Part shown: piece after piece, positions 5,418 to 39,542 of the stretch
How the letters are laid out: each line of letters begins with the position of its first letter
Position numbering within the stretch: position 1 is the stretch's first letter
Assembly: GCA_041653635.1 (NCBI GenBank)
Contig: JBAZFC010000001.1
Location: 335,426-399,425 of the forward strand
DNA: 64,000 nucleotides
Origin: Candidatus Micrarchaeia archaeon
GTDB taxonomy: Archaea > Micrarchaeota > Micrarchaeia > Anstonellales > Bilamarchaeaceae
Direction of reading: 5' to 3'
Position numbers and translations under genes: made by a program
The notes under the pieces: generated by a model
What the model was told of the DNA's origin: nothing
Databases searched by the model: none
What the model saw: only the letters and a program-made list of their open reading frames with translations

Positions 5418-5424
5418 TCTGCTT

Positions 5425-8515: not shown

Positions 8516-8552
8516 GTCGCCACAGTGCAGTTAAAGGTCTAACTTATGTTGT

Positions 8553-9635: not shown

Positions 9636-9678
9636 TGTGTGGATTACTGCAAAAGGGTTAATAAAAACGAGACCGGGG

Positions 9679-10683: not shown

Positions 10684-10809
10684 TAGATAATGACTGCAAA
10701 AGTCTTTTTAAATACTCTTTTTTAACATAAATAAACACTCCTAATCTTTATAAAAGGTTTTATGGGTAAATAGGAATGCTCTTTGGTTAGAAGAGATGCA
10801 CGCCTCAGC

Positions 10810-10903
10810 GCGTAAGGAGTGCGTGCAAAGAATCCCTCTGGTGAAGTCGGGGGAGGTATGATTACCCTAAAGAGAGGAGGGGCGCTCCCCTCTTCTTCTT
10901 GGA
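10810..10903 (+). other. conserved ~95-nt leader element upstream of tRNA-Gly(GCC)
   Basis: Shares blocks GCGTAAGGAGTGCGTGCAAAG, TCCCTC-TG-GTGAAGT-GGG, GGGGCGCTCCCC with the region upstream of tRNA-Thr at the same spacing. Confidence 0.35.
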
Positions 10904-10974
10904 GCGGCCGTAGTCTAGCGGTAGGATTCTAGGTTGCCAATCTAGCGACCCGGGTTCAAATCCCGGCGGCCGCA
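10904..10974 (+). tRNA. tRNA-Gly (anticodon GCC)
   Basis: Cloverleaf read by eye: acceptor GCGGCCG/CGGCCGC, anticodon loop TTGCCAA, T-arm CCGGG-TTCAAAT-CCCGG, discriminator A. Confidence 0.85.
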
Positions 10975-10996
10975 TTTGCTAATCAAATCGAGCAAG

Positions 10997-11380
10997 ATGA
11001 AAACGATGCTAGCTCCGAAAGACCGCAAAAGAGAGAGTTCCGCGAGATATGTGGGGTGCTGCGGCGCTTATTGCAAAACATGCAAGCCATTCATCGAGGG
11101 ATACTGCAAGGGCTGCAAACTGGGTTTTGACACCGGGGAACGGGATATTTCCAAGGCAAAATGCAGGATTAAGCTGTGCTGCTTCAAGGAAAGAAAACTT
11201 CAGACCTGCGCGGACTGCAGGGATTTTTCCTCTTGCATGGTTATTGGGGAGTTCTACAGAAAGAAAGGGCACAAGTACGGGAAGTACAGGCAATCAATCG
11301 AATTCATAAGGAAGAACGGGTATGCAAAGTTCATCGGGCTTGCTGGCAAGTGGAGATGCGCATACGGGAAACTGGAATGA
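10997..11380 (+). CDS. cysteine-rich small protein (DUF3795-like)
   Basis: Track ORF 10976..11380 begins 2 nt after the tRNA so a downstream Met is more likely; many CxxC/CxC pairs (CCGAYCKTCK, CKGCK, CADCRDFSSC). Confidence 0.45.
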   Translation: MKTMLAPKDRKRESSARYVGCCGAYCKTCKPFIEGYCKGCKLGFDTGERDISKAKCRIKLCCFKERKLQTCADCRDFSSCMVIGEFYRKKGHKYGKYRQSIEFIRKNGYAKFIGLAGKWRCAYGKLE

Positions 11381-11430
11381 ACTGGCAATCAGATTTAATA
11401 AAACGTCGGGAGTAGAATAATAACCTCTTA

Positions 11431-11549
11431 GCCGAGGTCACATAACCCGGTAGTGTGCCGGTCTCGAACTGGTTCCAATCCAAAACGGATAGGAGCCGTG
11501 TGAAAACCGGTTCCGCAAGGAATTGCAGGTTCAAATCCTGCCCTCGGCG
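11431..11549 (+). tRNA. tRNA-Ser (anticodon CGA) with ~36-nt intron near position 37/38 and long variable arm
   Basis: Acceptor GCCGAGG/CCTCGGC, discriminator G, anticodon stem CCGGT...ACCGG interrupted by ~36 nt (11469/70..11504/05), variable arm TTCCGCAAGGAATT, T-arm GCAGG-TTCAAAT-CCTGC. Confidence 0.7.
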
Positions 11550-11588
11550 TTCTCTTCTATTTAATAAAATAATGGAAGAGAAAAGAAA

Positions 11589-11686
11589 TGCGTAAGGAGT
11601 ACGTGCAAAGCGTCCCTCCTGTGAAGTGGGAGGGGGTCAGAATGACACCTAAAAATGGGGGGAGCGCCCTCCCCGCGTTTTTGGTT
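11589..11686 (+). other. conserved ~95-nt leader element upstream of tRNA-Thr(CGT)
   Basis: Paralogous to 10810..10903; preceded by TATA-like TATTTAATAAAATAA. Confidence 0.35.
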
Positions 11687-11758
11687 GCCTCGGTAGCTCA
11701 GCGGTAGAGCGCTCGCCTCGTAAGCGAGAGGTCGGGGGTTCAATCCCCCTCCGGGGCT
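11687..11758 (+). tRNA. tRNA-Thr (anticodon CGT)
   Basis: Acceptor GCCTCGG/CCGGGGC (one G-U), D-arm TAGCTCAGCGGTAGAGC, anticodon loop CTCGTAA, T-loop TTCAATC. Confidence 0.8.
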
Positions 11759-11761
11759 TTT

Positions 11762-12442
11762 CTAATTATATGGGTGCGGGCACGCGCCATCCGCGCATCC
11801 GAGGCAGGCGAGCTCGGAATGGCCGTAGTGGGCCGTGGATTCAGGGCTTGGGCACGAGAACTCGTGCAGCGTGGTGCCGTCGCAGTAGTCCTCCTTCAGG
11901 ACCCTTTCCTCTATGGTCCCGTCCGAATAATAGTCCTGGTAGATTATCTGCCCTTTTATGTAGAGGTGGTACGCGCCCCCTCCGTCCGTGTCGTTGCACT
12001 CGCTGCGCACGAGCTCGCGGCTGCACATTCCGCCCTCGCACCCGTTTGCGCACTCATAGGCCGCGTAGCTTATCACATTCCCGTCGCAGTAGAATTCCTT
12101 CAGGTCGGAAGGGCTGAGGCAAACGTCCTCCTCCTGCTGCAGGACAGTGGAATCCGAGCGCAGCACGGCCACGGATTGGGAGAACCTGTCGTCGCCTCCC
12201 TGCTTGTAGCATGAGATGTTCGGCGGGGCCTCGGGTGGCGGCTCGGGCTGGGGAGAGGGCGTTTCATTCACGGCGGGCGGCGCCTGCGCGGGCGCTTCGG
12301 GAGGCGGATGCTGCACCGGTGGGCACAGGTAGGTGCTGTTGGCCACCGAGCCGTCGGGGCATATGTAGGTTATGCTGCGCTGCTGGAGGCAGCCTGCGAA
12401 GACAATAAGGAGAATAAGCGGAATTATTGCGGATAATTTCAT
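11762..12442 (-). CDS. secreted/lipoprotein-like cysteine-rich protein with Pro-rich linker
   Basis: N-terminal signal peptide with lipobox-like AGC (LILLIVFAGCLQ), Pro-rich spacer, repeated YCDG/ECANGCEGG Cys motifs. Confidence 0.5.
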   Translation of the reverse strand: MKLSAIIPLILLIVFAGCLQQRSITYICPDGSVANSTYLCPPVQHPPPEAPAQAPPAVNETPSPQPEPPPEAPPNISCYKQGGDDRFSQSVAVLRSDSTVLQQEEDVCLSPSDLKEFYCDGNVISYAAYECANGCEGGMCSRELVRSECNDTDGGGAYHLYIKGQIIYQDYYSDGTIEERVLKEDYCDGTTLHEFSCPSPESTAHYGHSELACLGCADGACPHPYN

Positions 12443-12562
12443 GACAACCCTTTCAAATTTCTGCTGGAAAATTATTATTCCTATGCCTGCCCCGCAAAAA
12501 ACTCCGGATGCGGCAAGCTTATCTCTTTTTATTATTTAGGTGGCAAATCAACTGGGGGACTC

Positions 12563-13084
12563 ATGCTTACGTACTCTAAGCTCAGGGAGCTGCAACGCGC
12601 CGAGATGCAGAACGCGGAGCTCTCAAAGCTTGAGGACGGCTTCTATGTGGAGCTGAAGGCGTTCCTGGGCGCGAGGGAGGGCGAGGCGAGGTCCACGCAG
12701 AACCTGCTCGTGATGAAGGAATGCGAGAACGTGAAGAGGATAGCGCGGGCGGTCATAAACAAGAGGATGGAGAAGATAGTGCTCGTGTCCATAAGGGGCA
12801 GGGACGAGGTGCCCGGCCTGACGGGCGAGGAGAGGGATTTCCTCTCCAGATTGAGGGGCGTTGTCTCCGAAAGGGAGGCCGCGATGCTCGGAATTGTGGA
12901 GGAAAGGGCCTGCGAGGCGAAGACGGATAATATTAAAAGAATTAAGTTCGTAAAGGATATAAGCCCCTACAAGGGTTTGAACGAGAAAATCTACGGCCCC
13001 TACAAGAGCGGGGAAGAGGCGGAGCTTCCGGGCGAAGAGGCGCAGTGGCTTCTCAAGGAAAAGATGGCGGAACTCCTCCAGTAG
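12563..13084 (+). CDS. GINS-like replication protein (Gins15/Gins51-type), tentative
   Basis: 173-aa helical ORF; N-terminal pattern LRELQRAE...LSKLEDGFY and C-terminal small beta-like domain resemble archaeal GINS A/B domains; assignment from pattern memory only. Confidence 0.4.
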   Translation: MLTYSKLRELQRAEMQNAELSKLEDGFYVELKAFLGAREGEARSTQNLLVMKECENVKRIARAVINKRMEKIVLVSIRGRDEVPGLTGEERDFLSRLRGVVSEREAAMLGIVEERACEAKTDNIKRIKFVKDISPYKGLNEKIYGPYKSGEEAELPGEEAQWLLKEKMAELLQ

Positions 13085-13104
13085 AAAAATAATGGTGATT
13101 TTGA

Positions 13105-13386
13105 ATGGAATTTCCAAAGGAGATTAGGACATACTGCCCGTACTGCAGGAAGCACTCAGTCATGAAGGTGAAGATTGCCAGCAGGGGCAGGGCGAGGGGG
13201 CTCGCCGAGGGCACCAGGAAGCACGAGAGGAGCCTGCACGGGCACGGCGGAAAGAGGAAAGGCAAAAAGACCGTGAAGAAGCAGGGGAAGAGGCAGAAGC
13301 TCATGCTCACGTGCAAGGTGTGCAACAAGAGCGTGGAGAAGGTCCTCCGCGGAAGGACGAAGAAGAAAGTGGAACTGAAGAGATGA
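13105..13386 (+). CDS. rpl44e: 50S ribosomal protein L44e
   Basis: 93-aa basic protein with YCPYCRKH ... CKVCNK zinc-ribbon pairs; conserved archaeal position upstream of S27e. Confidence 0.85.
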   Translation: MEFPKEIRTYCPYCRKHSVMKVKIASRGRARGLAEGTRKHERSLHGHGGKRKGKKTVKKQGKRQKLMLTCKVCNKSVEKVLRGRTKKKVELKR

Positions 13387-13556
13387 GGATTATGGGCAAA
13401 TTCATGAAGGTAAAGTGCGAGTGCGGAAACGAGCAGGTCACGTCCGAGAACGCCGCCACGAGGGTGAAGTGCAGGGTGTGCAACAAGCCGCTCATAGAGC
13501 CGAAGGGCGGGAAGGCGGTCGTCATCGGCGGCACCATAGTGTCGGAGATGGAGTGA
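13383..13556 (+). CDS. rps27e: 30S ribosomal protein S27e
   Basis: FMKVKCECGNEQV...VKCRVCNKPLIEPKGGKA C4 zinc finger; likely start at internal ATG 13383 overlapping rpl44e stop (ATGA). Confidence 0.85.
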   Translation: MRIMGKFMKVKCECGNEQVTSENAATRVKCRVCNKPLIEPKGGKAVVIGGTIVSEME

Positions 13557-14299
13557 TGGTGCAGCTTCCGCGTGAAGGCGAGCTGGCCATTGCCGTAGTG
13601 AAGAAGATAATGCCCTACGGGGCGTTCTGCACGCTTTCCGAGTACGGGGACATAGAGGCGTTCATGCATGTTTCCGAGGTCGCGCCCCGGTGGATAAAGA
13701 ACATACACGAATTCTTGTCGGAGAAGCAGAAGCTCGTCGTGAAAGTCCACAGGGTGGACGCGGCGAAGGGGCAGGTTGACGTTTCCCTGAAAAGGGTGAA
13801 TGAGGACGAGCGGAAGCGCAAGGTGGAGGGCGTAAAAAAAGAAACACGGGCGCTGAAGCTGCTCCAGGTCGCGCTCAAGAATTCAAAGAGCAAGAAGACA
13901 TTTGACGCGCTCAAATCCGAGATAACCGCGGAGTACGGGAACCTTTACGATTTCCTGGAGGCGGCGAGGGACGAGGGCGATGCGGCGTTCGAGGGGCTGG
14001 ACATAGACAAGGCGCTCAGGAAGGAGCTGGAGGGCCTTATCGTAAAATACGTGAAGAAGCCCATCACGCTGATAGCGAAGGTGCTGAAGATTACGTGCTA
14101 CGAGCCGGACGGCATGCAGGTGGTGAAGGGCGTGCTTGAGGGCGCGGACGCGCATTACCTCGGCGCGGGCAGGTACATGCTCAAGCTGGAGACAGAGGAC
14201 CCGAAGGCGGGCGAGAAGGAGATGGGGAAGAAGATAGCGGGGATAGAGAAGGGCCTGAAAGGGAAGGACTGCATATTTTCCGTAGAGGAAGCGAAATGA
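13556..14299 (+). CDS. translation initiation factor 2 alpha subunit (aIF2-alpha)
   Basis: S1-like N-terminal domain (GELAIAVVKKIMPYGAFCTL...MHVSEVA) then helical and alpha/beta domains; true start at Met 48 of track ORF (13556), overlapping S27e stop. Confidence 0.85.
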   Translation: MVQLPREGELAIAVVKKIMPYGAFCTLSEYGDIEAFMHVSEVAPRWIKNIHEFLSEKQKLVVKVHRVDAAKGQVDVSLKRVNEDERKRKVEGVKKETRALKLLQVALKNSKSKKTFDALKSEITAEYGNLYDFLEAARDEGDAAFEGLDIDKALRKELEGLIVKYVKKPITLIAKVLKITCYEPDGMQVVKGVLEGADAHYLGAGRYMLKLETEDPKAGEKEMGKKIAGIEKGLKGKDCIFSVEEAK

Positions 14300-14442
14300 A
14301 AAGGATGGCGAAGTGCGTCGTGTGCGGCGGATACACGATGAAGGCGGCGCATTGCGGCAAAAAAACGAAAATGGCGCACCCTCCGCCTTATAATCCTAAC
14401 GACCGTTATGCTAAGTACAGAAGGGCGGAGAAGGGATTTTGA
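14296..14442 (+). CDS. nop10: ribosome biogenesis protein Nop10
   Basis: 48-aa ORF not in the track (<60 aa): MKRMAKCVVCGGYTMKAAHCGKKTKMAHPPPYNPNDRYAKYRR, zinc-ribbon plus AHPP motif; canonical position after aIF2-alpha. Confidence 0.8.
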   Translation: MKRMAKCVVCGGYTMKAAHCGKKTKMAHPPPYNPNDRYAKYRRAEKGF

Positions 14443-15191
14443 TGATTGAAACGACGATAATTGAAAAACAGGGCGTGGGCAAGCTGAGGAACCCTGTGAT
14501 GGTGACCGGGCTGCCTGGCATAGGGCTGGTCGGGCAGGTTGTAGCAAAGTACATGATAAAGAAACTGAACGGGAAGAAGATAGCGGATTTGTATTCGCCG
14601 CACTTTCCGCACCAGGTGATGATGACCAGCAAGGGCGGCATAAGGCTGCTGAAGAACAAATTCTATCTCATAAAGCTCAAGGAGAGGGACCTCATACTGG
14701 TGGTGGGGGATGTGCAGGCGATAACCGGCAACGGCCAGTATGAAGTGGCGGGCAAGATGCTGGATTACGTGCAGAAGCACAAGGTCAAGACGATAATAAC
14801 GATAGGGGGTTACAGCTCCGGCAAGATGAGCGGGGACAAGAAGGTGTTCGCCGCCTCCAACAACCTCAGGACGATGAACAAATACAAGAACATGTTCGTC
14901 TTCGGGGAGACGAAGGGGTCGATAGTCGGGGTGGCTGGGCTGCTGCCCGCGCTGGCGCTCATACGGGGGATAGACGCGATGTGCGTGATGGGAGAGACGC
15001 ACGGCAGCTATGTGGACCCGTCCGCGGCGAAGGCGGTGCTTGAGAAATTGGCCAAATTGTTCTCCTTCAAGATAGACATGGAGCAGCTTGAGGCGGATGC
15101 GAAGGAGAGGGAGAAGATGATAAAGAAGATAGAGAGCGAGATAGAGAAGCAGGCCGCAGGAGGCAATAAAGACATTACGTACATAAGGTGA
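14442..15191 (+). CDS. proteasome assembly chaperone PAC2-family protein
   Basis: 249-aa ORF in the conserved archaeal L44e-S27e-aIF2a-Nop10-PAC2 gene string; start ATG overlaps Nop10 stop. Confidence 0.65.
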   Translation: MIETTIIEKQGVGKLRNPVMVTGLPGIGLVGQVVAKYMIKKLNGKKIADLYSPHFPHQVMMTSKGGIRLLKNKFYLIKLKERDLILVVGDVQAITGNGQYEVAGKMLDYVQKHKVKTIITIGGYSSGKMSGDKKVFAASNNLRTMNKYKNMFVFGETKGSIVGVAGLLPALALIRGIDAMCVMGETHGSYVDPSAAKAVLEKLAKLFSFKIDMEQLEADAKEREKMIKKIESEIEKQAAGGNKDITYIR

Positions 15192-15195
15192 TGTT

Positions 15196-15429
15196 ATGAA
15201 AGGGCAGGTTTCCGCTGAAATGCTGATATTGCTCGCGGTGGTAATCGCGATTGTCGCGCTCGCTGCGTCGGCCCTGATGAACACTGCGCAGGATAGCCGT
15301 GATGCGGTCACGGACAGGACCAACGACGTGCTGACAAACACCAACGACGTCGCCAACTGCAGGGCGTGCACAACCAATGGAGATTGCGGTAGCGGCGGCA
15401 CATGTACTGACAGGTGTTGCGAGCCTTGA
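15196..15429 (+). CDS. class III signal peptide (archaeal type IV pilin-like) small protein with Cys-rich C-terminus
   Basis: N-terminus MKGQVSAEMLILLAVVIAIVALA matches the archaeal prepilin signal (KGQ cleavage motif + hydrophobic helix); C-terminal CRACTTNGDCGSGGTCTDRCC. Confidence 0.6.
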   Translation: MKGQVSAEMLILLAVVIAIVALAASALMNTAQDSRDAVTDRTNDVLTNTNDVANCRACTTNGDCGSGGTCTDRCCEP

Positions 15430-15797
15430 TGAAGGGCCAGGTGACCGCGGAGTATCTTCTTCTTGTTGCGGTAGGGATTTCACTGCTTGGGATTTCCCTT
15501 GCCGCGCTTTCCACCATAAAAAATGCGGAGGGGACGGTGTATGCGAGGGAGAAGGCGAGGATGGCCGCCGGGGATTTGTCTTCCATTGCTTCTGAGGTTT
15601 GCGCATTGGGGGACGGAAATTCTAGAACCTATTCTTTGGAGAGCGCGGGGCTGGAATGCTCCGGAAATACTATTTCCGTGAGCGTGGGGAATGAGACGGC
15701 TTCTGCGGGCGTGCCGGGATGCGAAGTGGAGTGCGGGGGAGCGCATTCGGGCGGTGTAAGCATAAGGAATTCGCACGGGACTGTGATTATAGGATAG
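15429..15797 (+). CDS. class III signal peptide (archaeal type IV pilin-like) protein
   Basis: Internal start MKGQVTAEYLLLVAVGISLLG (track ORF 15414..15797); ATG overlaps upstream stop; several Cys in mature part. Confidence 0.6.
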   Translation: MKGQVTAEYLLLVAVGISLLGISLAALSTIKNAEGTVYAREKARMAAGDLSSIASEVCALGDGNSRTYSLESAGLECSGNTISVSVGNETASAGVPGCEVECGGAHSGGVSIRNSHGTVIIG

Positions 15798-16320
15798 ATT
15801 TGAGCAGCGGAATGAGTTCATGGTCTTTTTCTGCCCAGATTATGAAGCCATGGCCTTCCATGAGGATTATTTTGCCTTCTTTTGCCTTTGAGGAAACCGC
15901 ATTTGCAAGCTCAGGCGAGCCGTATGGAAGCTTTGGGACGAAAGGTAAGGAAGGTTTCCTTGAGAGCAAGGAATCGCCGTGGAAGTGCAGGATTGCAGAT
16001 GCGGGTACGGAGCGGTAGATAAAGTGGTGCATGAAGGACTCGGAGGAGGGGAGGGCTCCGGAATAGGAAAGGGAGAAATCGCTTTCGTTGACGGAAGCCA
16101 CATATGCGAGGTCCTCCTTCTTCAGGAGGGTGAGCTTGGAACCGGTGCCTTTTATCACAAACCCTTTTCCGCAGAGGACGCTGAGGTTGCCCTCGTTCGC
16201 GGATGGGGAAAGGAGACCCTTAAGGGTTGCATCCATGGCGAGGAGGCGGGAGGCGCATGCGCCTGGGACTCCACCCGGGACTTTTATAGCCCGGAACTTC
16301 ACGCCTTCATACTTTTCCAT
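15787..16320 (-). CDS. class II aldolase/adducin-like protein (tentative)
   Basis: 177-aa ORF with His-containing segment ILHFHGDS; sits next to an MtnA/e2b2-family gene, a context where class II aldolase-fold partners are common; weak assignment. Confidence 0.35.
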   Translation of the reverse strand: MEKYEGVKFRAIKVPGGVPGACASRLLAMDATLKGLLSPSANEGNLSVLCGKGFVIKGTGSKLTLLKKEDLAYVASVNESDFSLSYSGALPSSESFMHHFIYRSVPASAILHFHGDSLLSRKPSLPFVPKLPYGSPELANAVSSKAKEGKIILMEGHGFIIWAEKDHELIPLLKSIL

Positions 16321-17270
16321 AGGGCATCCGGGCTCCGGAATATTCCATTCTCGGTTATATGTGCGGTGACCAGGCGGGAGGGTGTGACGTCAAAGGCGGG
16401 GTTGAGGGCACGGGTGCCTTTCGCATAGATGTGCCTGCCGCCGATTTCAAGCACCTCTTTTTCGTCCCTGTGCTCTATCCGAATTGAGTTTCCGGATTTT
16501 AGGCGGGAGTCAAGAGTGGAGGAGGGGGCGGCGACGTAAAAGGGAATTTTGTGCGCATGCGCAAGCACTGCCAAATCGTAGGTGCCGACTTTGTTTGCGA
16601 AATCTCCGTTCCGGCATATGCGGTCCGCGCCGAGGATTACCAAATCAACCTCGCCCCTTGACATGAGGGAGGCCGCGGCGGAATCCACTACGACCCTATG
16701 TAGGATGTGCATCTTTTTGAGCTCCCAGGAGGTGAGCGCGCCCTGGAAGCGGGGGCGGGTTTCCTTCACCCACACGAAGGGTTTTTTTCCGGATTTGTGC
16801 GCAGCCGCGATTACGCCTAGGGCGGTGCCGTATTTTCCAACTGCGAGCGGGCCGGTATTGCAGTGGGTAAGGACTTTTGCGCCCTTTCCTATCAGCTTCT
16901 TCCCGTGTATGCCCAGCCTCCTGCATTTTTCATAGACGGATTTTTCCCATTCCCTCGCGAGGGGGAGGGGGGGTTTGCGCGCGTAGTTTGCGCGCATGAA
17001 GCGAAGGGCGTTGGCGAGGTCCACCGCGGTGGGGCGGGAGGCGAGGAGGGAATCAAATGCCTGGTTTTCCTTGCCTGCGGTGGCGCCGAGCGCGTAGCCG
17101 TAGGCAGCGGCTACGGAAATGGCTGGGGCGCCGCGGACCACCATATTCTTTATCGCGGCGGAAACCTGTGCATAGGTCTTGCATTTTACCTGCTCTTCTT
17201 TGTAGGGGAGCTTCCTCTGGTCAAGGAGAAATAAGGCGTTGTTGCGGAACGAGATGATTTCCATGGTCAT
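16299..17270 (-). CDS. eIF-2B alpha/beta/delta-like family protein (MtnA / ribose-1,5-bisphosphate isomerase type)
   Basis: Start at internal Met (MTMEIISFRNNALFLLDQRKLPY); motifs GAPAI, THCNTG, ETRPRFQGA, ILGADR typical of the e2b2/MtnA family. Confidence 0.8.
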   Translation of the reverse strand: MTMEIISFRNNALFLLDQRKLPYKEEQVKCKTYAQVSAAIKNMVVRGAPAISVAAAYGYALGATAGKENQAFDSLLASRPTAVDLANALRFMRANYARKPPLPLAREWEKSVYEKCRRLGIHGKKLIGKGAKVLTHCNTGPLAVGKYGTALGVIAAAHKSGKKPFVWVKETRPRFQGALTSWELKKMHILHRVVVDSAAASLMSRGEVDLVILGADRICRNGDFANKVGTYDLAVLAHAHKIPFYVAAPSSTLDSRLKSGNSIRIEHRDEKEVLEIGGRHIYAKGTRALNPAFDVTPSRLVTAHITENGIFRSPDALWKSMKA

Positions 17271-18637
17271 GCGCCCGGTTTTATGAATTCCGCAAATTCG
17301 GGATGCACTTTCCTCAATTCTTCCAGCATTTCCGAAGCCAATTCGCGGATGGTGAAGTGGGCGAATGGCGCGCTCCTTAATCTTATGAACGTGGCGAGCT
17401 CGCGCAGGTTCATGGTCGCGAGGACGCGGCGGTAGTGCGCATTGGTGGCGATGTAGCCAGCTGCGAAGGGATGAGTGGCTTCTATTCTTTGGAAGCATTC
17501 GGCGCTCTCCTTCATCGCCTCTGCGAATTCCTTTTTCATGCCGCATTTTTCAATGTCTTCGGGAACCCTGTAGCCGAGGGAAATGGTGGGCTCCTGGGCG
17601 CTTATAGTCATCATGCGGTGGCGCTTGAACTCGTAATAGGCGCCCTGGTCCATGAGCAGGTCAAAGGTGTAGGTTATGTGCTCCAGTTCGCGGATGGGCT
17701 TGAGGCCTTCCGGGAAGCGGGAGGAGATGGATTTGAACAGCTCCATCGCGCTGGAGGGCTTGGATGATTTAATGTGGGCTAGTGCATCCTCAAATGAGAG
17801 GCCGCTCCACCTATATAAGATGGAAGCGGAGAGGGATTCCAATGCATTTTTGTCGTAGTGGATAAGATGGACGCGCCTGCTGCCTACGGGCGAGGAGAAC
17901 TGATGGAATTGCTTGTGGGTTTCATTCTGGAAATCAACTAATGCAGGGTTTTCCTCCGCCCTCCTGAGGAGTGTGGGGAAGACCTGGGCGCCTGCGCTGC
18001 GGAGCATGGTTCCGGCTTTTCGCACTTCCGCGAGCGGGCTGGAAAGCATCTTTATGAGCGCGTATTCAAGGACGCGCGCGTTCATGGTTATGCCGACGTT
18101 GGCGAGCGTGGAGTTGGGGAGGAGGAAGCGGGCGGAATCCATCGCCATTGTTTTCAATTTTATTTCGTGTGCTTTTTCTTTTCCGGGCTCTGGCTTTGAG
18201 CTGGAGGAATAGAAATCAACAAGAGCGGAAATGGAGCGACCGTAGGTTGTGAAGAGGGAGGAGAGCGCATCCTCATAACCGCGCTGGAGGGGCGTTCCCT
18301 TTATTTCTTCTGGGAGATGGGTGTGCGACTTGTCCAGCTGCTGGTAGCGGGTGGATTTTTCCGTATAAGAACCGAGGCGGTTGGACTCTATGCATTCAAC
18401 CGCAAGGCGGGAGATGTCCTCCGCGGCGAGGTGCGCGACCGCATGCTCGGCGACGCTGGAGTGGCCGTAGCCCACCACCCATTTCTCATGGAATTTGGAT
18501 GAGGATTCGGCGCTCAGCTCCGCGGCTATTTTATCAAAGGGCTCCGGGGAGCGGCTGGTCTTGGCGAACGCGACGGCTGCAACCTCTTCGGAAATCCCTG
18601 TGAGCGGGTATATGCGCATCTCCGGCATGTGAATCAC
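17267..18637 (-). CDS. flavin-dependent thymidylate synthase ThyX-like, tandem-domain form
   Basis: 456 aa; first half has GHSSVAEH and STRY motifs, second half has FKRHRMM (RHR) motif, resembling a duplicated ThyX fold. Confidence 0.55.
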   Translation of the reverse strand: MIHMPEMRIYPLTGISEEVAAVAFAKTSRSPEPFDKIAAELSAESSSKFHEKWVVGYGHSSVAEHAVAHLAAEDISRLAVECIESNRLGSYTEKSTRYQQLDKSHTHLPEEIKGTPLQRGYEDALSSLFTTYGRSISALVDFYSSSSKPEPGKEKAHEIKLKTMAMDSARFLLPNSTLANVGITMNARVLEYALIKMLSSPLAEVRKAGTMLRSAGAQVFPTLLRRAEENPALVDFQNETHKQFHQFSSPVGSRRVHLIHYDKNALESLSASILYRWSGLSFEDALAHIKSSKPSSAMELFKSISSRFPEGLKPIRELEHITYTFDLLMDQGAYYEFKRHRMMTISAQEPTISLGYRVPEDIEKCGMKKEFAEAMKESAECFQRIEATHPFAAGYIATNAHYRRVLATMNLRELATFIRLRSAPFAHFTIRELASEMLEELRKVHPEFAEFIKPGA

Positions 18638-20159: not shown

Positions 20160-20230
20160 GCGGCCGTAGTCTAGCGGTAGGATTTTGGCCTTCCAAGCCA
20201 ACGACCCGGGTTCGAATCCCGGCGGCCGCA
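20160..20230 (+). tRNA. tRNA-Gly (anticodon TCC)
   Basis: Acceptor GCGGCCG/CGGCCGC, anticodon loop CTTCCAA, T-arm CCGGG-TTCGAAT-CCCGG, discriminator A; near-identical backbone to tRNA-Gly(GCC) at 10904. Confidence 0.85.
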
Positions 20231-20588: not shown

Positions 20589-20991
20589 ATCATCACAATA
20601 CTACTCAACTAACTTACCTACCAAAGACATTTGTATATTGCCTACATAAAAAAAATGGGGCGGGGGAAATTTCATATCACTTATATATACCAATATATTT
20701 TTAAACATATCCAGATAGAAAAATCTGGAAGTTCTATAGATAATAAGAATTATTTGATTATAAATATTTTAAAATTTTTGTATTTCTATTAAAATTTTGA
20801 TATTTCGACCTGCTCAGGGATAAATTCAATTCTAAATAATCAATAAAACGAGTTTAGGAGATTTCACACATAGATATAAAAAGGAAGTAATTGTATATTG
20901 GAGCAGGTCCTCCCCAAAGAGGATACTGTGGAAGAAAGATGGGGCGGGGGAAACACCCATTTGTTCTCCCACGACGAGGGAAAACCATGAA

Positions 20992-21322: not shown

Positions 21323-22420
21323 ATGAACATTCCTAACATCTATAAGGGAGATTACCGGCTCTTGCTCATATTCCCGCTCATACTCGTAGCTTTATCCATA
21401 TATTATCTGCCGGACCTGAAGATGGGCGTGGACTTCAGGGGAGGGACGCTCATTACCCTCCACCTGACGAACCAGCCGGATGCGGCGGCGCTCCAGAGCG
21501 AGCTTTTGGCGAACGGGTTTGACGCGAACGTGAAGGTGTACGAGAGCGAGCTGGGCAGGGTTGCCGAAGTGGAGGTGTCGCAGACCGACCAGATGGTGCG
21601 GGCTGAGGCGCTGAAGAAGGAGTTTGCGGGCCAGCTGGAAAAGGTGGCTTTCCTGGAGGCTGATGCGAACGTAAACGCTTCAAAGGAGGCGGAATACCGC
21701 GCGGAGAGGCGGACGCTGGACGCGATGGCGGACGAGATGTTTGGGCTGGGCGGGCTGAACACCGAGGCGGGGATGTATGACAACCTGAACAGGCTGCAGG
21801 ACAAGTTCAATGAGGCATACATGAGGGTGAACGACATACAGACCGCGCAGGTGATGGAGATAGTGGATAATCATGCGCAGTACAGCAGCAAATCCGCGAC
21901 GACGGTGAGCCCGGCGCTGAGCACGCATTTCCTGGAGAACGCGGGCAGGGTTGTAATAATGTCGGCGCTGCTCAGCGTGGCGCTTGTGTTCTTCTTCTTC
22001 AGGGCGGTCGTGCCCAGCATAGCGGTGATAACGGGCGCGGCATGCGACGTAATCATAGCGATGGGCGCGATGAGCTTCTTCGGGATTCCCCTTACTTTGC
22101 CTTCATTTGCGGCGCTGCTGATGTTGATAGGGTTCTCGCTGGACACGGACGTGCTGCTCACCACTAGATTGGTGAAGAGGAGGGGCGACCCGAGGGAGAA
22201 CGCTTTTGACGCGATGAAGACGGGAATGACGATGAGCTTCTCCGCGATGGTGGCGTTCCTAGTGCTGTTCGCGGTGTCCATGATAACGCACATTGCTGTG
22301 TATTACGAGATTTCGGCGGTCGCGCTGGCGGGGCTGGTGGGCGACGTGTTCGCGACGTGGGGGCTTAACGCAGTGATGGTGCTTTACTATAAGGAGCACA
22401 TGAAGGGAGGTGGCGCCTGA
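21323..22420 (+). CDS. secF: protein-export membrane protein SecF-like (SecD/SecF family)
   Basis: N-terminal TM, GVDFRGGT motif, extracytoplasmic domain, then C-terminal multi-TM bundle. Confidence 0.75.
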   Translation: MNIPNIYKGDYRLLLIFPLILVALSIYYLPDLKMGVDFRGGTLITLHLTNQPDAAALQSELLANGFDANVKVYESELGRVAEVEVSQTDQMVRAEALKKEFAGQLEKVAFLEADANVNASKEAEYRAERRTLDAMADEMFGLGGLNTEAGMYDNLNRLQDKFNEAYMRVNDIQTAQVMEIVDNHAQYSSKSATTVSPALSTHFLENAGRVVIMSALLSVALVFFFFRAVVPSIAVITGAACDVIIAMGAMSFFGIPLTLPSFAALLMLIGFSLDTDVLLTTRLVKRRGDPRENAFDAMKTGMTMSFSAMVAFLVLFAVSMITHIAVYYEISAVALAGLVGDVFATWGLNAVMVLYYKEHMKGGGA

Positions 22421-24060
22421 TGGACCACAAGAAAGTCATTATTGCGCTGGCGCTGCTTTTCGCGGCGGGCATATATGCGTACCCGGTTTTCGCCGGGCTG
22501 GTGCTGATGTGCGCGCTCATACTGTTCGGCGCGCTTTCCCATTTCTGGGAGGGCAGGGAGCTGAAGCTCATCTGCCTTGGCGCAATTATACTGCTCGCGG
22601 GGTTCAACCTCGTGCTGCACGGGATGAAGTTCGGGATAGACTTTAGCGGGGGGACGAGGATTCCCGTGGTGCTGGAGCAGCCGGCGCAGGGCACAGTGAT
22701 GGACGAGATGGTGAATTCCATCAAGAAAAGGGCGTCCGCGTTCGGGCTGACCGAAGTGAAGGTGAGGGCGGTAGGCGACTCGCAGATAAACGTGGAAGTG
22801 CCGAGTTCGGACCCTGAGTTCATCAGGTCCGTGGAGGATATCCTGTCGCAGCAGGGGGTTTATACCGGCGTGGTGGACGGGAAAGCCGCGATGAAGGGTG
22901 AATTCATACTTCCCGGGACCATATACCAGATTTCCGCATCGCAGCTGCAGGGGGAGGACTGGGGCGTGGGATTTTCCGTAAATAGGGCGGGTGCGGAGCT
23001 GTTCGCGAGCGTGGTGAATGGGAAGGCGTATTATCCTGTTTATATGTTCCTGGACAGGCCAAATGATGCGGTTATAGTGGCTTCGTGGGACGAGCTGAAG
23101 GGAACCAGCCAGGTGATTGACAGGGCGGGGATGCTCACCGCGATGAGGAAGGCGCTCGCGCTTGAGGGGAATGATATTGAACTTTATGTTTATGACGGGA
23201 ACCTCAGCGGGATAGAGCCAGGGACGAACCAAACGAAGGCGATAATCTCAAAGGAAATGAATGCGAGCATAGGGCGGGAGCTCCGCGGGCTGGGTTTCAA
23301 TGTGGTTGTGGCGGAGGAGGGGATAACTCCGACGCTCATGTATGGGGAGGACACACAGGAGTACGTGGTGGAAGAATGGCCCGCGGTCGGGCTGCTTTCC
23401 TCACCGAGCCTTTCCCCGGACATAGCCACGGGCATACCTGCGTACAACTTCCGGATTGGAGGGGTTGCGCAGGGGGCAGGGAACGAGAAGGCGCTTTCGG
23501 CGTATGAGAGCGCGAAGAAGATTGAGTCCATATTGAAGGGAGGGGCGCTGCCGGTGCAGATTTCCATAGGTTCAAAGACAGTGATACCTGCGCCGCTGGG
23601 CGAGGAGTTCCTCAGGCTGAGCATAATCGGGCTGGGGCTTTCGCTGATAGCGATTTCGGCGCTTGTTTCATTGCGCTATAGGAAGATGAGCATACTGTTG
23701 CCGATTATAGTGATAAGCTTCTCCGAGATGGTGATACTGCTCTCGGTCATCGGTTCCTTTACGATAGACCTTGCCGCGATGGCGGGCATAATAGCCGCGA
23801 TAGGGGTGGGTGTGGACTCGCAGATAGTCATTACGGATGAATTGCTCAAGAAGGAAGGGTCGCGAGACGAGAAATTGGGGAAGGCGTTTGATATTGTGAC
23901 AACCACGGTCACGGTGGCGGTGTTCGCAATGGTTCCGCTTTTGTTCTCGGGAATGGTGGAAATCATCGGGTTCGCGATTTCAACCATATTGGGGGCGCTG
24001 CTGGGGCTGCTGCTTTCCAGGCCGGCGTATGCCGCCATAGTGGAGGGGATTGGGGACTAG
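22420..24060 (+). CDS. secD: protein-export membrane protein SecD-like (SecD/SecF family)
   Basis: GIDFSGGTRI motif, large extracytoplasmic domain, C-terminal multi-TM bundle; start overlaps secF stop. Confidence 0.75.
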   Translation: MDHKKVIIALALLFAAGIYAYPVFAGLVLMCALILFGALSHFWEGRELKLICLGAIILLAGFNLVLHGMKFGIDFSGGTRIPVVLEQPAQGTVMDEMVNSIKKRASAFGLTEVKVRAVGDSQINVEVPSSDPEFIRSVEDILSQQGVYTGVVDGKAAMKGEFILPGTIYQISASQLQGEDWGVGFSVNRAGAELFASVVNGKAYYPVYMFLDRPNDAVIVASWDELKGTSQVIDRAGMLTAMRKALALEGNDIELYVYDGNLSGIEPGTNQTKAIISKEMNASIGRELRGLGFNVVVAEEGITPTLMYGEDTQEYVVEEWPAVGLLSSPSLSPDIATGIPAYNFRIGGVAQGAGNEKALSAYESAKKIESILKGGALPVQISIGSKTVIPAPLGEEFLRLSIIGLGLSLIAISALVSLRYRKMSILLPIIVISFSEMVILLSVIGSFTIDLAAMAGIIAAIGVGVDSQIVITDELLKKEGSRDEKLGKAFDIVTTTVTVAVFAMVPLLFSGMVEIIGFAISTILGALLGLLLSRPAYAAIVEGIGD

Positions 24061-24061
24061 T

Positions 24062-24077
24062 TGTAACCATGGTTACA
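24062..24077. promoter_or_regulatory. 16-bp perfect palindrome TGTAACCATGGTTACA (copy 1), 16 nt upstream of the thrS ATG
   Basis: Exact palindrome read directly; four copies in the window, all intergenic. Confidence 0.5.
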
Positions 24078-24093
24078 TTACAGGTGTGGGCTC

Positions 24094-25998
24094 ATGAAGG
24101 AACTTATCATACACGCGGACAAGGTTTCCTACGAAACGACAAGGAAAACGAAGGTCGCCGAGGAGATTTCCAAGGAGATGGAAAAGGGCGAGATGAAGGA
24201 CGTAATCTGGGCTCGTATTGCGGTGGAGAAGACGGACGAGGAGGACCTCCCTGGGATTGCGCAGCAGGCGGTTGAGGACCTGATTTCCGTTTCCGACCAA
24301 GTGAAATGCAAGAATGTCATGCTCTACCCGTATGCGCATTTGCTCTTTGGGAGCACACCTTCCTCCCCCGAGGCCGCAATACAGGTGATTAAAGATATAG
24401 AAGGGGCGCTGAAAGAGGAAGGCTTCAACGTGATGAGGGCGCCTTTTGGATATTATAAGAAATTCAAGGTTGATACCAAGGGGCATCCGCTCAGTGAACT
24501 CTCGCGGGTATTCACTCCGGGGATGAAAGCGGAGAAAAAGGAGATGAAGATAAAGAGCGTGGAGACTGAGGAGAAGGTTTCCTCATCCTTGCAGAAGGAG
24601 GCGGGGCTGAAGAGCAGGTTCTATGTTTTGACTCCGGACGGAAAACTTGTTGAGCATGAAAAGTTCAATTACAAGGGGCACGATGGGCTCCAGAAGTTCA
24701 TGACCTATGAGACGAAAAAGGTTCGCGCCTATGAGAAGGAGCCGCCCCACATAAAGATAATGAAGGAACATGAATTTGTGGATTATGAGCCTGGGACGGA
24801 CCAGGGGAACTTCCGCTGGTATCCAAACGGGCGGTTGATTAAGAAAATACTTGAGAAGAGCATAACCGATTTTTGTGTAGATTACGGAGCGATGGAAGTG
24901 GAGACGCCCGTGATGTATGATTTTGAGCACCCTACGCTGAAGAAGTATTTGGATAGGTTTCCTGCAAGGCAGTACGTGGTGCTTTCGGATGACAAGAAAT
25001 TGTTCCTTCGGTTCGCGGCGTGCTTCGGGCAGTTCCTTATGGCTACGGGAATGGTGATTTCGCACAAGCACCTTCCGTTGAAAATGTATGAGCTTACCCG
25101 GTATTCCTTTAGGCGGGAGCAAGGGGGGGAGCTTGCCGGGCTCAAAAGGTTGCGCGCATTCACGATGCCGGATATGCACGCCTTCTGCAGGGACATCCCG
25201 CAGTCGCAGGAGGAATTTGAGAGGCAGCTGGGATTGGGGATGTCGTGGCTGGATTCCGTCGGGTTGTTTGGGGCTGCGGAGATTGGGTTCCGGATAGAGA
25301 CTGCGTTTTATGAGAAGAACAAGGATTGGTACAAGCGGATGGTGAAGAAGATTGGGAAGCCGGTGCTCGTGGAGATGTTCGACGAGAGGTATGCGTATTT
25401 CATTACCAAATTTGAATTCAATTTCATAGATTCCATGGACAAGGCTTCTGCTCTCACTACTGTGCAAATTGATGTGGAGAATGCAGATACTTATGGGATA
25501 CATTATGTGGATGAGGACGGGAGCAAGAAGAAGCCGGTGATTACTCACGCATCCATTTCCGGGAGCCTGGAAAGGGTGGTGTATGCCCTCTTGGAAAAGG
25601 AAGGGATGCAGATGGAGAAAGGGGAGAAGGCGATGCTCCCCCTCTGGCTTTCGCCCACGCAGGTCAGGATTATTCCTATTTCTGAAAAGCATATGGAGTA
25701 TGCGGGGAAACTGTTTTCCTCCTTTGATGGGGTGCGGGCGGACATAGATGACAGGGTGGAAACCCTTGGAAAGAAGATAAGGCAGGCGGAGAAGGATTGG
25801 GTTCCCTACGTTGCGGTTGTGGGGGACAAGGAGATGGAGACCGGGAAATTGGCGATTACGGTTAGGGAAACTGGGCAGAAGAAGGAAATGAAAGCTGAGG
25901 AATTGGCTGCGGAGATTAGAAAGATTACTGAAGGGAAGCCGTTTGAGCAGCTCAGCCTGCCTAAGGAATTATCCTTGAGGCCAATATTCCACGGTTAG
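24094..25998 (+). CDS. thrS: threonyl-tRNA synthetase, archaeal type with N-terminal editing domain
   Basis: 634 aa; archaeal-style N-terminal editing domain, class II aaRS core (FRREQGGELAGLKRLRAFTMPDMHAF), C-terminal anticodon-binding domain. Confidence 0.85.
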   Translation: MKELIIHADKVSYETTRKTKVAEEISKEMEKGEMKDVIWARIAVEKTDEEDLPGIAQQAVEDLISVSDQVKCKNVMLYPYAHLLFGSTPSSPEAAIQVIKDIEGALKEEGFNVMRAPFGYYKKFKVDTKGHPLSELSRVFTPGMKAEKKEMKIKSVETEEKVSSSLQKEAGLKSRFYVLTPDGKLVEHEKFNYKGHDGLQKFMTYETKKVRAYEKEPPHIKIMKEHEFVDYEPGTDQGNFRWYPNGRLIKKILEKSITDFCVDYGAMEVETPVMYDFEHPTLKKYLDRFPARQYVVLSDDKKLFLRFAACFGQFLMATGMVISHKHLPLKMYELTRYSFRREQGGELAGLKRLRAFTMPDMHAFCRDIPQSQEEFERQLGLGMSWLDSVGLFGAAEIGFRIETAFYEKNKDWYKRMVKKIGKPVLVEMFDERYAYFITKFEFNFIDSMDKASALTTVQIDVENADTYGIHYVDEDGSKKKPVITHASISGSLERVVYALLEKEGMQMEKGEKAMLPLWLSPTQVRIIPISEKHMEYAGKLFSSFDGVRADIDDRVETLGKKIRQAEKDWVPYVAVVGDKEMETGKLAITVRETGQKKEMKAEELAAEIRKITEGKPFEQLSLPKELSLRPIFHG

Positions 25999-35978: not shown

Positions 35979-35996
35979 ATGTAACCATGGTTACAT
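35979..35996. promoter_or_regulatory. 18-bp perfect palindrome ATGTAACCATGGTTACAT (copy 2), ~50 nt upstream of the purF ATG
   Basis: Exact palindrome; about 20 nt upstream of a TATA-like TTTTTAAAAC element. Confidence 0.55.
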
Positions 35997-36045
35997 TTTA
36001 GCCTGGCAAACCTATGTTTTTAAAACAAAAAGGGGAATGTGAAAT

Positions 36046-37464
36046 ATGGAGAAAAGAGAAAGCTGCGGCATAGTCGCTGTGTTATCAAAAAACAACAAGC
36101 CCGTGGCGAATTATATTTACAACGGAATGCTTGCGCTCCAGCACAGGGGGCAGGATGCCGCCGGCATGGCAATCTACGACGGAAAAAAGCTGGTTGAAAA
36201 GAAGGGGCTCGGATTGGTCTCCCGCATATTTTCCGAAAAGGACATGGTGATGAAGGGTGGTATGGGGATTGCGCACACGAGGTACCCGACAACCGACACG
36301 TGCGAAATTGCCGATGTCCAGCCGTCCGTTGTGCAGAAGGCGGGGCTCGCCATTGCGCACAACGGCCACATCGCCAATTATACGGATTTGCGGAAGGAGC
36401 TGGAGAAAAAAGGCGCGAAGTTTGCGGGCACGGTTGATTCCGAAGTTATTGCGCACGTGCTTGCGGATGCGTTTGCTTCTGGGAAGGACATTGAGGGCGC
36501 AGTGAGGCACGCGATGGGCAAGCTGGATGGCTCGTATTCCGTGGTCGCGATAAAGGACGGCGTGCTCTTCGCATTCAGGGACCCGCACGCGATAAGGCCC
36601 TTTGAGCTCGGCGAGAGCGGGGATGCGTATTTTGCCGCATCCGAAACCGTGGCATTTGACATAAACGGGGCGAAGCACGTGGGGACGCTGGGCGGGGGTG
36701 AGATGGCAGTCATAAGCCCTAAGGGATTCCAGAAGAAGATGGTATCGCCATCCACTCATAGGCACTGCATGTTTGAATATGTATATTTCTCAAGGCCGGA
36801 CTCCGTGATAAACAGCGTGGAGGTGCACGAGGCGAGGAGGCGGCTCGGGGCTGCGCTTGCGAGGGAGGCGCCGGTGAAGGCGGACGTGGTCGTGCCGATA
36901 CCGGACACGGCGAGGACGGCTGCGCTTGAGATATCGCGTGTTCTTGGGATACCCTATGAAGAGGGCATAATCAAGAACAGGTATGTGGCGCGCACGTTCA
37001 TCATGCCGGACCAGAAGATGCGCGTGGGCGCGGTCAAGGCGAAATTGAACCCGATAAGGAGCGTTGTGGAAGGCAAAAGCGTAATCGTTGTTGATGACAG
37101 CATCGTCCGGGGGACCACGACCAGGGAGATACTGAAGATGCTTAGGGATGCAGGCGCGAAGGAGATACACATGCGCGTCACGTGCCCGCCGGTGATGCAC
37201 CCGTGTTTCTACGGGGTGGACATGTCCACTTACGAGGAGCTGATTGCCGGCAAGAAAAGCGTGGATGAGATAAGGAAATTCATAGGCGCGGACACGCTGT
37301 ATTATGTTTCATTGGACGGGCTGAAAAAGGCGATAGGGCTGGATCTCTGCACCGGATGCCTGGATGGGGATTACCCGACGGCATACGGAGCTAAGATGGC
37401 GAAGGAGAGGAAGGGCTGCGGAAAGGAAGGAGGAAAGGATTCACATGGCTGTGGCTGCGGTTGA
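36046..37464 (+). CDS. purF: amidophosphoribosyltransferase
   Basis: N-terminal CGIVAV nucleophile motif (Ntn glutamine amidotransferase), PRTase motif VIVVDDSIVRGTT. Confidence 0.9.
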   Translation: MEKRESCGIVAVLSKNNKPVANYIYNGMLALQHRGQDAAGMAIYDGKKLVEKKGLGLVSRIFSEKDMVMKGGMGIAHTRYPTTDTCEIADVQPSVVQKAGLAIAHNGHIANYTDLRKELEKKGAKFAGTVDSEVIAHVLADAFASGKDIEGAVRHAMGKLDGSYSVVAIKDGVLFAFRDPHAIRPFELGESGDAYFAASETVAFDINGAKHVGTLGGGEMAVISPKGFQKKMVSPSTHRHCMFEYVYFSRPDSVINSVEVHEARRRLGAALAREAPVKADVVVPIPDTARTAALEISRVLGIPYEEGIIKNRYVARTFIMPDQKMRVGAVKAKLNPIRSVVEGKSVIVVDDSIVRGTTTREILKMLRDAGAKEIHMRVTCPPVMHPCFYGVDMSTYEELIAGKKSVDEIRKFIGADTLYYVSLDGLKKAIGLDLCTGCLDGDYPTAYGAKMAKERKGCGKEGGKDSHGCGCG

Positions 37465-38989: not shown

Positions 38990-39490
38990 TCAGGGCGTCT
39001 TCTTTAGGCGGTCTTTCTTCACATTCCCCTTAGTGGTTTCCGCCGGGATTCCGATAGGCAGGATGCAGACCGGCCTGCCTTGTTCTTGGAATATCCCCTT
39101 CACCTCTTCATCACTGAACGCACCCACCCATACCGCGCCGAGGCCGAGGTCCGTGGCCGCCAATTGCGCATAGCCCGCGGCGAGGGATGCGTCTATTATG
39201 CAGAATAAATTTCCCCGTTCCCCGTATTTCTTTGAGGAAGACGCCGCATCCGCGAAGAAGACGAACACTGCCGGGGCATCGGAAATGAAACCCTGGTTGA
39301 AGGCGGCCTTTGCGAGCTTTTCCTTAGTTTCTTTTTCAGTAACCAGATAGAAATGGTAGCTCTGCAGGTTGCCTGCGGACGGGGCTAGGTTGGCTGCATC
39401 CTTAATTGTGTCTAGCTGCTTCTGCGCGAGGGGCGAGGGCCTAAACAGCCGCGTGCTCTTCCTTTCCCTTATGAGTTTTTGGAATTCCAT
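38990..39490 (-). CDS. nitroreductase family protein
   Basis: 166 aa; N-terminal RERKSTRLF motif and overall nitroreductase-like pattern. Confidence 0.75.
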   Translation of the reverse strand: MEFQKLIRERKSTRLFRPSPLAQKQLDTIKDAANLAPSAGNLQSYHFYLVTEKETKEKLAKAAFNQGFISDAPAVFVFFADAASSSKKYGERGNLFCIIDASLAAGYAQLAATDLGLGAVWVGAFSDEEVKGIFQEQGRPVCILPIGIPAETTKGNVKKDRLKKTP

Positions 39491-39542
39491 GGCTAAACCG
39501 CCAGCATCAAACTATTTAATCGTTTCACCACATATCAATACT

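Follow-up and report, generated by a model that had tools for sequence, protein, structure and literature searches.

The closest described counterparts of the element considered here are the operators of the archaeal regulators TrmBL1/Tgr (the Thermococcales glycolytic motif, TGM, TATCAC-N5-GTGATA), SurR, and Ptr2, and, in bacteria, the PUR box bound by PurR. The archaeal sites are hexamer inverted repeats with a short spacer, one motif serving each metabolic regulon, and they occupy two positions, either 5' of the transcription factor B (TFB) recognition element (BRE) and TATA box, where they tend to activate, or past the TATA box over the start site, where they repress. The PUR box is a 16-bp palindromic operator found over scattered de novo purine genes, and the PurR roadblock in purB of E. 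coli is an example of such a site within a transcription unit. Here, a 64,000-nucleotide (nt) stretch of DNA from a Candidatus Micrarchaeia archaeon (assembly GCA_041653635.1, contig JBAZFC010000001.1, positions 335,426 to 399,425), hereafter the window, was analysed with respect to a 16-nt perfect palindrome, TGTAACCATGGTTACA (24062-24077), located between secD and thrS. Comparison across genomes suggests, with a probability of roughly 0.7, that this palindrome is an operator belonging to a lineage-wide TGTAAC-N4-GTTACA element, with a CATG centre in this genome, that is recognised by a two-fold symmetric Micrarchaeota-specific protein. The properties of an operator are found together: the dyad symmetry is kept in variants, the copies are non-coding and their spacing to TATA boxes and start codons is constrained, orthologous positions are conserved, and the targets are coherent. 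The Micrarchaeota sequence differs from those of TrmBL1, SurR, and Ptr2, is far more invariant, is purine-centred, and has no TrmB-, Lrp-, or ArsR-type regulator linked to it; the motif of haloarchaeal TrmB, which touches purine genes, is also unlike it. Compared to PurR, the sequence is unrelated to the PUR-box consensus, the context is that of archaeal TATA/BRE promoters, and the positions are mostly of the activator type; no LacI-family or PurR domain was found in the proteins scanned, a set made up of window open reading frames (ORFs) and representatives of the motif-adjacent proteins.

The palindrome begins 1 nt past the secD stop and ends 16 nt before the thrS ATG and, as an earlier note on this DNA had stated, it lies inside the 33-nt gap between the two genes (secD ORF end 24060, thrS start 24094). 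Exact copies of the 16-mer occur four times in the window, at 24062, 35980, 44854, and 50930, all intergenic, and no copy with one to three mismatches is present, the next-nearest 16-mer in the window having four. The expectation from shuffled sequence is 0.05 matches with up to three mismatches, and none of 100 shuffles gave four. Degenerate or half-site copies are likewise absent from the window, where additional TGTAACC heptamers are isolated. The block common to all four copies is 17 nt (the 16-mer plus a 3' T), copies 2 and 4 form an 18-nt palindrome, ATGTAACCATGGTTACAT, and beyond these 17-18 nt the flanks are unrelated to one another, which points to a discrete site and not to a mobile repeat. 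The window is syntenic with several loci in metagenome-assembled genomes (MAGs) at 72-85% nucleotide identity, and each of the four copies is identical at 16 of 16 positions to the orthologous site of at least one other species, the neighbouring DNA being 15-28% diverged. The multiple exact copies and the embedded NcoI site (CCATGG) might otherwise suggest a selfish or defence-related repeat, such as a miniature inverted-repeat transposable element (MITE), an insertion-sequence end, an integration site, a DNA-uptake sequence, or a restriction-modification target. This is scarcely credible given the orthologous positions across species, the fixed promoter distances, the few to about ten copies per genome among the matches listed, and the absence of any transposase or integrase among the window and motif-adjacent genes; a mobile element or MITE was rejected on the unrelated flanks.

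The distribution of the exact 16-mer was determined by scanning 185,579 reference genomes, one per species, and at least 116 matching loci were listed; counts given below for other genomes are among these matches listed, and labels such as L030 or L123 denote loci from other genomes used in the comparisons. At least 68 loci, with at least 76 sites, fall in 25 DPANN MAGs, many of which hold four to nine sites each, and at least 24 of these 25 are labelled Micrarchaeota, Micrarchaeia, Anstonellales, or similar. The other 48 loci are bacterial, each in a different genome, which is what chance or conserved coding sequence would produce. Only two or three of 80 sites lie truly within ORFs, so that about 95% are intergenic; a crude comparison of ORF overlap (8/80 archaeal and 16/48 bacterial matches) was too coarse and was not used. 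Across 549 kb of matching loci, which were chosen for an exact copy, three one-mismatch copies, no two-mismatch copy, and no alternative centre were found, and the window, which was not so chosen, is likewise without near-variants. A full-text literature search returned no paper with the motif string, and a search combining Micrarchaeota with palindromic promoter elements returned nothing relevant. The motif thus appears to be previously undescribed and near-invariant, with a range that seems restricted to Micrarchaeota among the matches listed.

The position of the sites relative to genes is that of a promoter element. Flanking genes are co-directional at 39 sites, divergent at 24, and convergent at 7 (n = 70), with at least one convergent assignment, at purF, being a gene-calling artefact; since the convergent orientation is the rarest and few sites lie in ORFs, the pattern is one of promoter elements at gene 5' ends, not of terminators. 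Measured from the motif edge, start codon distances peak narrowly at 36-38 nt (18 of 115 cases, with 11 at exactly 37 nt), and in this class the spacer consists of 8-10 nt, a TATA-like octamer (TTTAAATC, TTTTAATC, TATTTAAC, and similar), and about 20 nt before the ATG. Such promoters are probably leaderless or have very short leaders, with the palindrome directly 5' of BRE/TATA and its centre at about -45 from the ATG. At purE/Pop5, the palindrome sits midway between two divergent promoters of this kind, for example at 37 and 37 nt in L101. A crude TATA scan placed the TATA centre 24-29 nt from the ATG and gave a bimodal motif-to-TATA spacing of 5-10 nt and 17-24 nt, indicating two promoter classes, I and II, about one helical turn apart; the purF, purL, and 301-residue gene promoters of the window belong to the 17-24 nt class. 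In a third geometry, seen at a gene for a 77-residue protein, the order is TATA, palindrome, and ATG, with the motif 0-10 nt before the ATG.

The earlier note had proposed that the thrS copy is either an intra-operon element, such as a terminator- or attenuator-like hairpin or a processing site, or the binding site of a factor that overlaps the thrS initiation region. The second proposal is well supported by the conserved dyad and by the promoter-positioned site that would be shared across a regulon. Under the first, the secD-thrS transcript would fold into a hairpin at the palindrome that terminates or attenuates transcription, serves as a processing site, or modulates translation close to the thrS Shine-Dalgarno (SD) sequence; in its favour, the site is probably transcribed there and stands 13-17 nt from the ATG beside an SD-like AGGTG in five species. 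This proposal is nonetheless very improbable, as the stem would be only 6 bp and A/U-rich, and the hairpin is absent from both the minimum free energy (MFE) and the centroid structures of the 76-nt secD-thrS junction RNA, which folds worse than its shuffles (MFE -11.2 versus a shuffle mean of -15.2 kcal/mol, z = +1.37). No T-tract follows the motif at the thrS junction or at the other copies inspected, and an Rfam search of the window returned four tRNAs only and nothing at the palindrome. Convergent contexts, where a terminator would be at home, are the fewest (7/70, against 24/70 divergent), and many copies lie 5' of both TATA boxes of divergent promoters, where they are not expected in any transcript. 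The sequence variants also speak against a stem: in some lineages CCATGG is changed to CTATAG, so that positions 7 and 10 vary symmetrically, and these two, at a separation of only 2 nt, cannot pair in a hairpin, whereas other lineage variants alter one arm only and would break the stem. This is the pattern to be expected if a two-fold symmetric protein recognises the DNA duplex, and the RNA hairpin or terminator was rejected on folding, orientation statistics, untranscribed positions, sequence variants, and Rfam.

At thrS itself (24094-25998, plus strand), which encodes an archaeal threonyl-tRNA synthetase (ThrRS) with an N-terminal editing domain, the start codon is reliable because the match to the Pfam archaeal ThrRS editing domain starts at residue 1. 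Copy 1 (24062-24077) is preceded on the same strand by the overlapping secF (21323-22420) and secD (22420-24060), and the SD-like AGGTG (24083-24087) lies between it and the thrS ATG. Five species (the window, L030, L094, L123, and L125), the ThrRS proteins of which are roughly at least 90% identical, have the motif 13-17 nt ahead of the thrS ATG, and in all five an SD-like AGGTG or GGTG lies between palindrome and ATG. The 16-mer of this junction is identical at 16 of 16 positions in L030, L094, L123, and L125, while synonymous sites, the spacer, and the SecD C-terminus vary. L123 and L125 have 67 additional nt between the secD stop and the palindrome (2404-2470 in L125) that are missing from the window, L030, and L094; this insert contains a TATA-like GATAAAAA about 28 nt 5' of the motif and may provide thrS with a promoter of its own there. 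As the distance from motif to ATG is kept despite the insert, the site belongs to thrS and not to secD. The earlier note had counted absence of the palindrome at thrS in related genomes among the findings that would tell against its proposals; the palindrome is retained in the four other species and lost in distant ones alone. That note was also correct that there is no space for a TATA box between the palindrome and the thrS ATG, and since the palindrome abuts the secD coding sequence there is no TATA-like box 5' of it in this genome. With a TATA-like CATATAAAG about 45 nt 5' of the secF ATG, the secF/secD overlap, no oligo-T past secD, and no TATA before the palindrome, thrS is most likely transcribed by read-through from secF-secD. 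Co-transcription, which the earlier note had raised together with the intra-operon RNA element, is therefore plausible, the AGGTG being a further point in its favour, whereas the RNA element that went with it is not supported.

The remaining copies in the window lie at promoters. Copy 2 (35980-35995) is located between the stop of an Nre gene (35972; the gene is at 34719) and the ATG of purF (36046-37464, plus strand), which encodes amidophosphoribosyltransferase, with a TATA-like TTTTTAAAA at 36017-36025, 21 nt from the palindrome and about 25 nt 5' of the ATG; the order Nre, palindrome, purF recurs in L105 and L110. Copy 4 (50930-50945) lies in a divergent promoter region between the purS-purL fusion (47895-50876, minus strand, ATG 50876), which is followed by purQ (47125-47919, minus strand), and a gene for a 301-residue protein (50995-51900, plus strand, ATG 50995), with TATA boxes at about 50897-50905 on the purS-purL side and about 50963-50971 on the other. 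The orthologous site is present in L112, which also has an orthologue of the 301-residue gene, and purL sites occur in L049 and L064 as well. The two pur-adjacent palindromes of the window thus head the purF unit and the purSL-purQ unit. The 301-residue gene is the first of a same-strand array that starts at copy 4 and is closed by purD (57010-58302), which overlaps the stop of the preceding small ORF; judging by this arrangement, purD may be co-transcribed from copy 4.

Motif-adjacent proteins from the matches listed were grouped by BLAST clustering, with Pfam run on the representatives. De novo purine synthesis is the sole large coherent class, accounting for 17 of the 80 listed sites, with purS-purL, purF, and purE at four loci each, purP at three, and purN at two (the purF of L014 being assigned from its N-terminal sequence). 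Pop5, divergent from purE, is found at four loci, and ATP-dependent DNA ligase, the primase subunit PriL, and thrS at three each, the last reaching five species once L123 and L125 are added; all of these are assigned by Pfam. The most frequent neighbours are the ORF for the 77-residue protein (10 loci), to which no family could be assigned, and a Hef-like helicase (5 loci) which is divergent from it with a start about 100 nt away. PCNA is a Pfam-supported neighbour in some species, and singleton neighbours look like hisS, carB, the TATA-binding protein (TBP), proteasome alpha, and a beta-CASP nuclease, judging from N-terminal sequences.

The association with the gene for the 77-residue protein is a constant one. 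In the window, this gene (44880-45113, plus strand) encodes a basic protein of an orphan family, a candidate autoregulated palindrome-binding factor, and copy 3 (44854-44869), flanked by the Hef-like helicase gene and the small gene, lies between a TATA-like AATTTAAAG (44841-44849) and the ATG (44880). Seventeen small-gene loci were examined, comprising loci found by the motif and loci found by protein similarity independently of it. The family palindrome TGTAAC-N4-GTTACA lies 5' of the gene in 16 of the 17, an arm-divergent dyad taking its place in the 17th (L137); it is within about 100 nt in 15 of 17, is 153 nt before the conserved domain in L106, and, where close to the gene, sits between TATA and ATG. 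The arrangement of copy 3 is conserved in L058, L074, L100, L092, L068, L028, L001, L080, and L120, the last having the exact motif 4 nt before the ATG, and recurs with centre variants in L117/L122, L119, and L134-L136. These include TGTAACCATGGACACA 16 nt before the ATG in L119, a TATA centre in L117/L122, L135, and L136 (2 nt before the ATG in L136), and eight arm-conserved variants with the centres CTTA, TAAA, TATA, and TTTG around the gene in L134. Since the arms are kept while the centre varies, the motif in its general form is TGTAAC-N4-GTTACA, CATG being the centre of one clade alone. In L137, a different palindrome, ATAATCTATAGATTAT, occupies the same spot, and the protein carries R17T and R20T in helix a1; with a genome of 31% GC, chance is a concern for this palindrome. 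Apart from this single case, no clean correlation was found between palindrome centres and protein residues.

The 77-residue family comprises 70 cluster representatives among 1.84 billion proteins, nearly all of 75-88 residues, and every named member belongs to the Micrarchaeota lineage. Searches with 18 members found no family in Pfam, Cas2 included, and none in NCBIfam, where TIGR01573 matched one of the 18 at E = 0.14; sequence-profile searches against the PDB gave no match, to Cas2 or otherwise. The structure model (predicted local distance difference test, pLDDT, 91) has a predicted ferredoxin-like b-a-b-a-b fold, and Cas2 dominates its Foldseek matches in the PDB with probabilities of up to 0.99. 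As modelled, it would resemble Cas2/VapD proteins in being a small ferredoxin-like fold of about 80-90 residues with a hydrophobic b1 ending in a conserved Asp (YxYD). The Cas2/VapD-type family is known to dimerise and to contact duplex DNA. The conserved core consists of YxYD at the end of b1, N-R/K-x-K-R-x-F-Y-Y in helix a1, and KSV, FF, and VYK; the helix a1 residues N16, R17, K19, and R20 are invariant in one alignment (A2), with K19 and R20 at 90% or more in a broader one (A5). No cas genes were found in the gene tables around eight independent loci of the gene or in the window. The constant pairing of gene and palindrome, the shared narrow phyletic range, and the repressor-type geometry make this protein the best candidate for the palindrome-binding factor, and that it is indeed the factor, and autoregulated, is suggested tentatively, at slightly less than even odds. 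Dimeric helix-turn-helix (HTH) regulators typically bind palindromes of 16-18 bp with hexamer arms, the 77-residue protein has no known DNA-binding fold or hidden Markov model match, and HTH proteins are at hand, such as an HTH_3 protein at 5425-5970 in the window and a TrmB-family gene in L136. It is thus quite possible, although not favoured, that the operator is bound by a conventional HTH or winged HTH factor encoded elsewhere and that the small gene is simply the most conserved member of the regulon. Yet no HTH gene recurs beside the motif, the small gene is preceded by a palindrome or dyad in 17 of 17 loci, even where no other gene within 20 kb has one, the motif and the 77-residue family share one narrow phyletic range, and the lineage with divergent arms (L137) is likewise substituted in helix a1.

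The small-gene locus also has features reminiscent of a replication origin. A G-run with TTTCCACTAAT (44783-44810, plus strand), an ORB-like (origin recognition box-like) core of non-canonical polarity, lies 5' of the gene, and an inverted second copy, a G-run with TTTCCACT (45112-45133, minus strand), lies just past its stop. The G-run + TTCCA(C/G)TA(A/T)T element occurs only twice in the window (0.44 expected), at 44788(+) and 45112(-), so that the inverted pair brackets copy 3 and the small gene. An element of this kind is found 5' of the gene in 15 of 17 lineages (including L120, L122, and L135-L137), and in L134 the eight palindromes are interspersed with four such elements in about 1.2 kb of non-coding DNA (9923-11080), 9 kb from an Orc1/Cdc6-like gene. 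The partial likeness to ORBs lies in the inverted repeats with a GTGGAAA/TTCCAC core and G-run around an AT-rich stretch, multiplied in L134. A published ORB differs in that its G-run is on the opposite strand, and here a protein-coding gene separates the elements and the window has no orc1/cdc6 next to them; as the G-run polarity is different, the TTCCA(C/G)T elements are not supported as canonical ORBs. The cumulative GC skew climbs to about 44 kb and then drops, which coincides with the small-gene locus, and the 44-46 kb bin is among the two GC-poorest. From these features, together with the ligase, PriL, and PCNA targets of some species, it could be argued that the palindromes are primarily sites of an origin-associated factor, the small-gene locus being ancestral and the promoter copies secondary. 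This seems quite improbable, since besides the polarity of the G-run the scan of roughly 60 window ORFs gave no Orc1/Cdc6 domain, the skew turn has terminus polarity in bacterial terms and is confounded by gene orientation, and the fixed TATA spacing at pur genes argues for a transcriptional role.

Several points weigh against reading the palindrome as the operator of a regulon. All functional interpretations offered here are comparative, and the near-total want of degenerate sites is atypical of transcription-factor regulons. Site counts are lower bounds, and because loci were selected by the exact 16-mer the census of centre variants is biased. The replication and repair genes of the window (RecJ-like, RadA, FEN1, Gins51, ThyX, PCNA, and HerA-like) have no palindrome, nor has purF in L122, and in three distant relatives with 58-60% identical ThrRS, thrS has an ordinary TATA promoter and no family palindrome. 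As for the candidate factor, the fold modelled for the 77-residue protein gives no independent support for DNA binding. Finally, the thrS site of this genome has no TATA box on which it could act, and a roadblock there is the least supported step of the mechanism set out below. The absence of the motif from thrS, purF, or replication genes in some genomes indicates that the regulon varies by lineage. With motifs at ligase, PriL, and PCNA elsewhere, the link to replication is species-dependent, and a general replication-gene regulon is not supported in this genome, FEN1, Gins51, PCNA, RadA, and ThyX being without the motif.

Other features of the window and of the compared loci were observed alongside. 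Replication, repair, and nucleotide genes are dense at 731-18637 and 54709-60966, and include a RecJ/GAN-like DHH protein, RadA, FEN1, Gins51, a 456-residue ORF containing ThyX, a HerA-like ATPase, and PCNA; Nre at 34719 is counted with them. Beside the Hef-like helicase, 39369-43250 (plus strand) encodes a conserved protein of about 1,295 residues without a Pfam domain; its counterpart in L136 (4556-8455, 1299 residues) has a palindrome, the second one of that locus, 38 nt from its start, the class-I distance, and the same copy is 60 nt from PCNA. In L024 (DAOUYQ010000121.1), a 905-residue HerA/DUF87-like ATPase with an apparent intein (LAGLIDADG/Hint-like sequence by eye) lies to the left of site 2928, 212 nt from the palindrome. 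The GC-poorest part of the window is a very AT-rich intergenic stretch of about 400 nt (20590-20990), adjoining a tRNA gene (20160-20230) and 5' of a 99-residue ORF and secF, which contains the direct repeats AAA(A/G)A(A/T)(A/G)ATGGGGCGGGGGAAA at 20648-20669 and 20932-20953, 284 nt apart. A cluster of three tRNAs (10904-11758) includes a match spanning 119 nt at 11431-11549 (Rfam, 42.8 bits) that probably contains an intron.

Under the operator reading, the factor would at most targets bind directly 5' of BRE/TATA, with the palindrome edge 8-10 nt from the TATA box or one helical turn further. At pur and other class-I and class-II promoters it may then modulate or assist recruitment of TBP, TFB, and RNA polymerase, in an activator-type geometry, whereas at the small gene it would bind between TATA and start site and repress, amounting to autoregulation if the small protein is the factor; these assignments follow the positional rules of characterised archaeal regulators. 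At thrS, occupancy would most likely lower expression, either by roadblocking polymerase arriving from secF-secD, with the purB site of E. coli as an analogue, or by occluding a weak internal start, and such control would tie ThrRS output to the signal that governs purine synthesis. The ferredoxin-like fold is common among small-ligand sensors (ACT, RAM, and PII domains), although a link to the signal of this factor is speculative. It has also been considered, as a rather unlikely extension, that a Cas2-fold protein without a CRISPR link was exapted as an autoregulated, sequence-specific DNA-binding factor, with its gene in an origin-like module of inverted ORB-like repeats; by binding the palindromes at purine-synthesis, thrS, and some replication gene promoters, this protein would couple nucleotide supply and part of translation capacity to replication.

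To date, no transcription-factor regulon has apparently been described for Micrarchaeota, as judged by the full-text literature searches described above. The motif offers a testable circuit, composed of a 16-18 bp operator, purine-centred targets, and a 77-residue candidate regulator, and may serve as a marker to predict promoters, leaderless starts, and co-regulated genes in Micrarchaeota MAGs. At thrS, an operator would account for the perfect palindrome between secD and the thrS ribosome-binding site and for its conservation there, and the small-gene locus is a candidate replication origin. If the protein with the predicted Cas2 fold does bind the palindrome, the sequence-specific regulators of archaea would gain a new structural class, and the exaptation of CRISPR-type folds a further example. 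Were the exapted regulator also to act at the origin, it could be seen as the archaeal counterpart, in function, of DnaA or CtrA, a transcription factor of a reduced DPANN symbiont with a second role at the origin.

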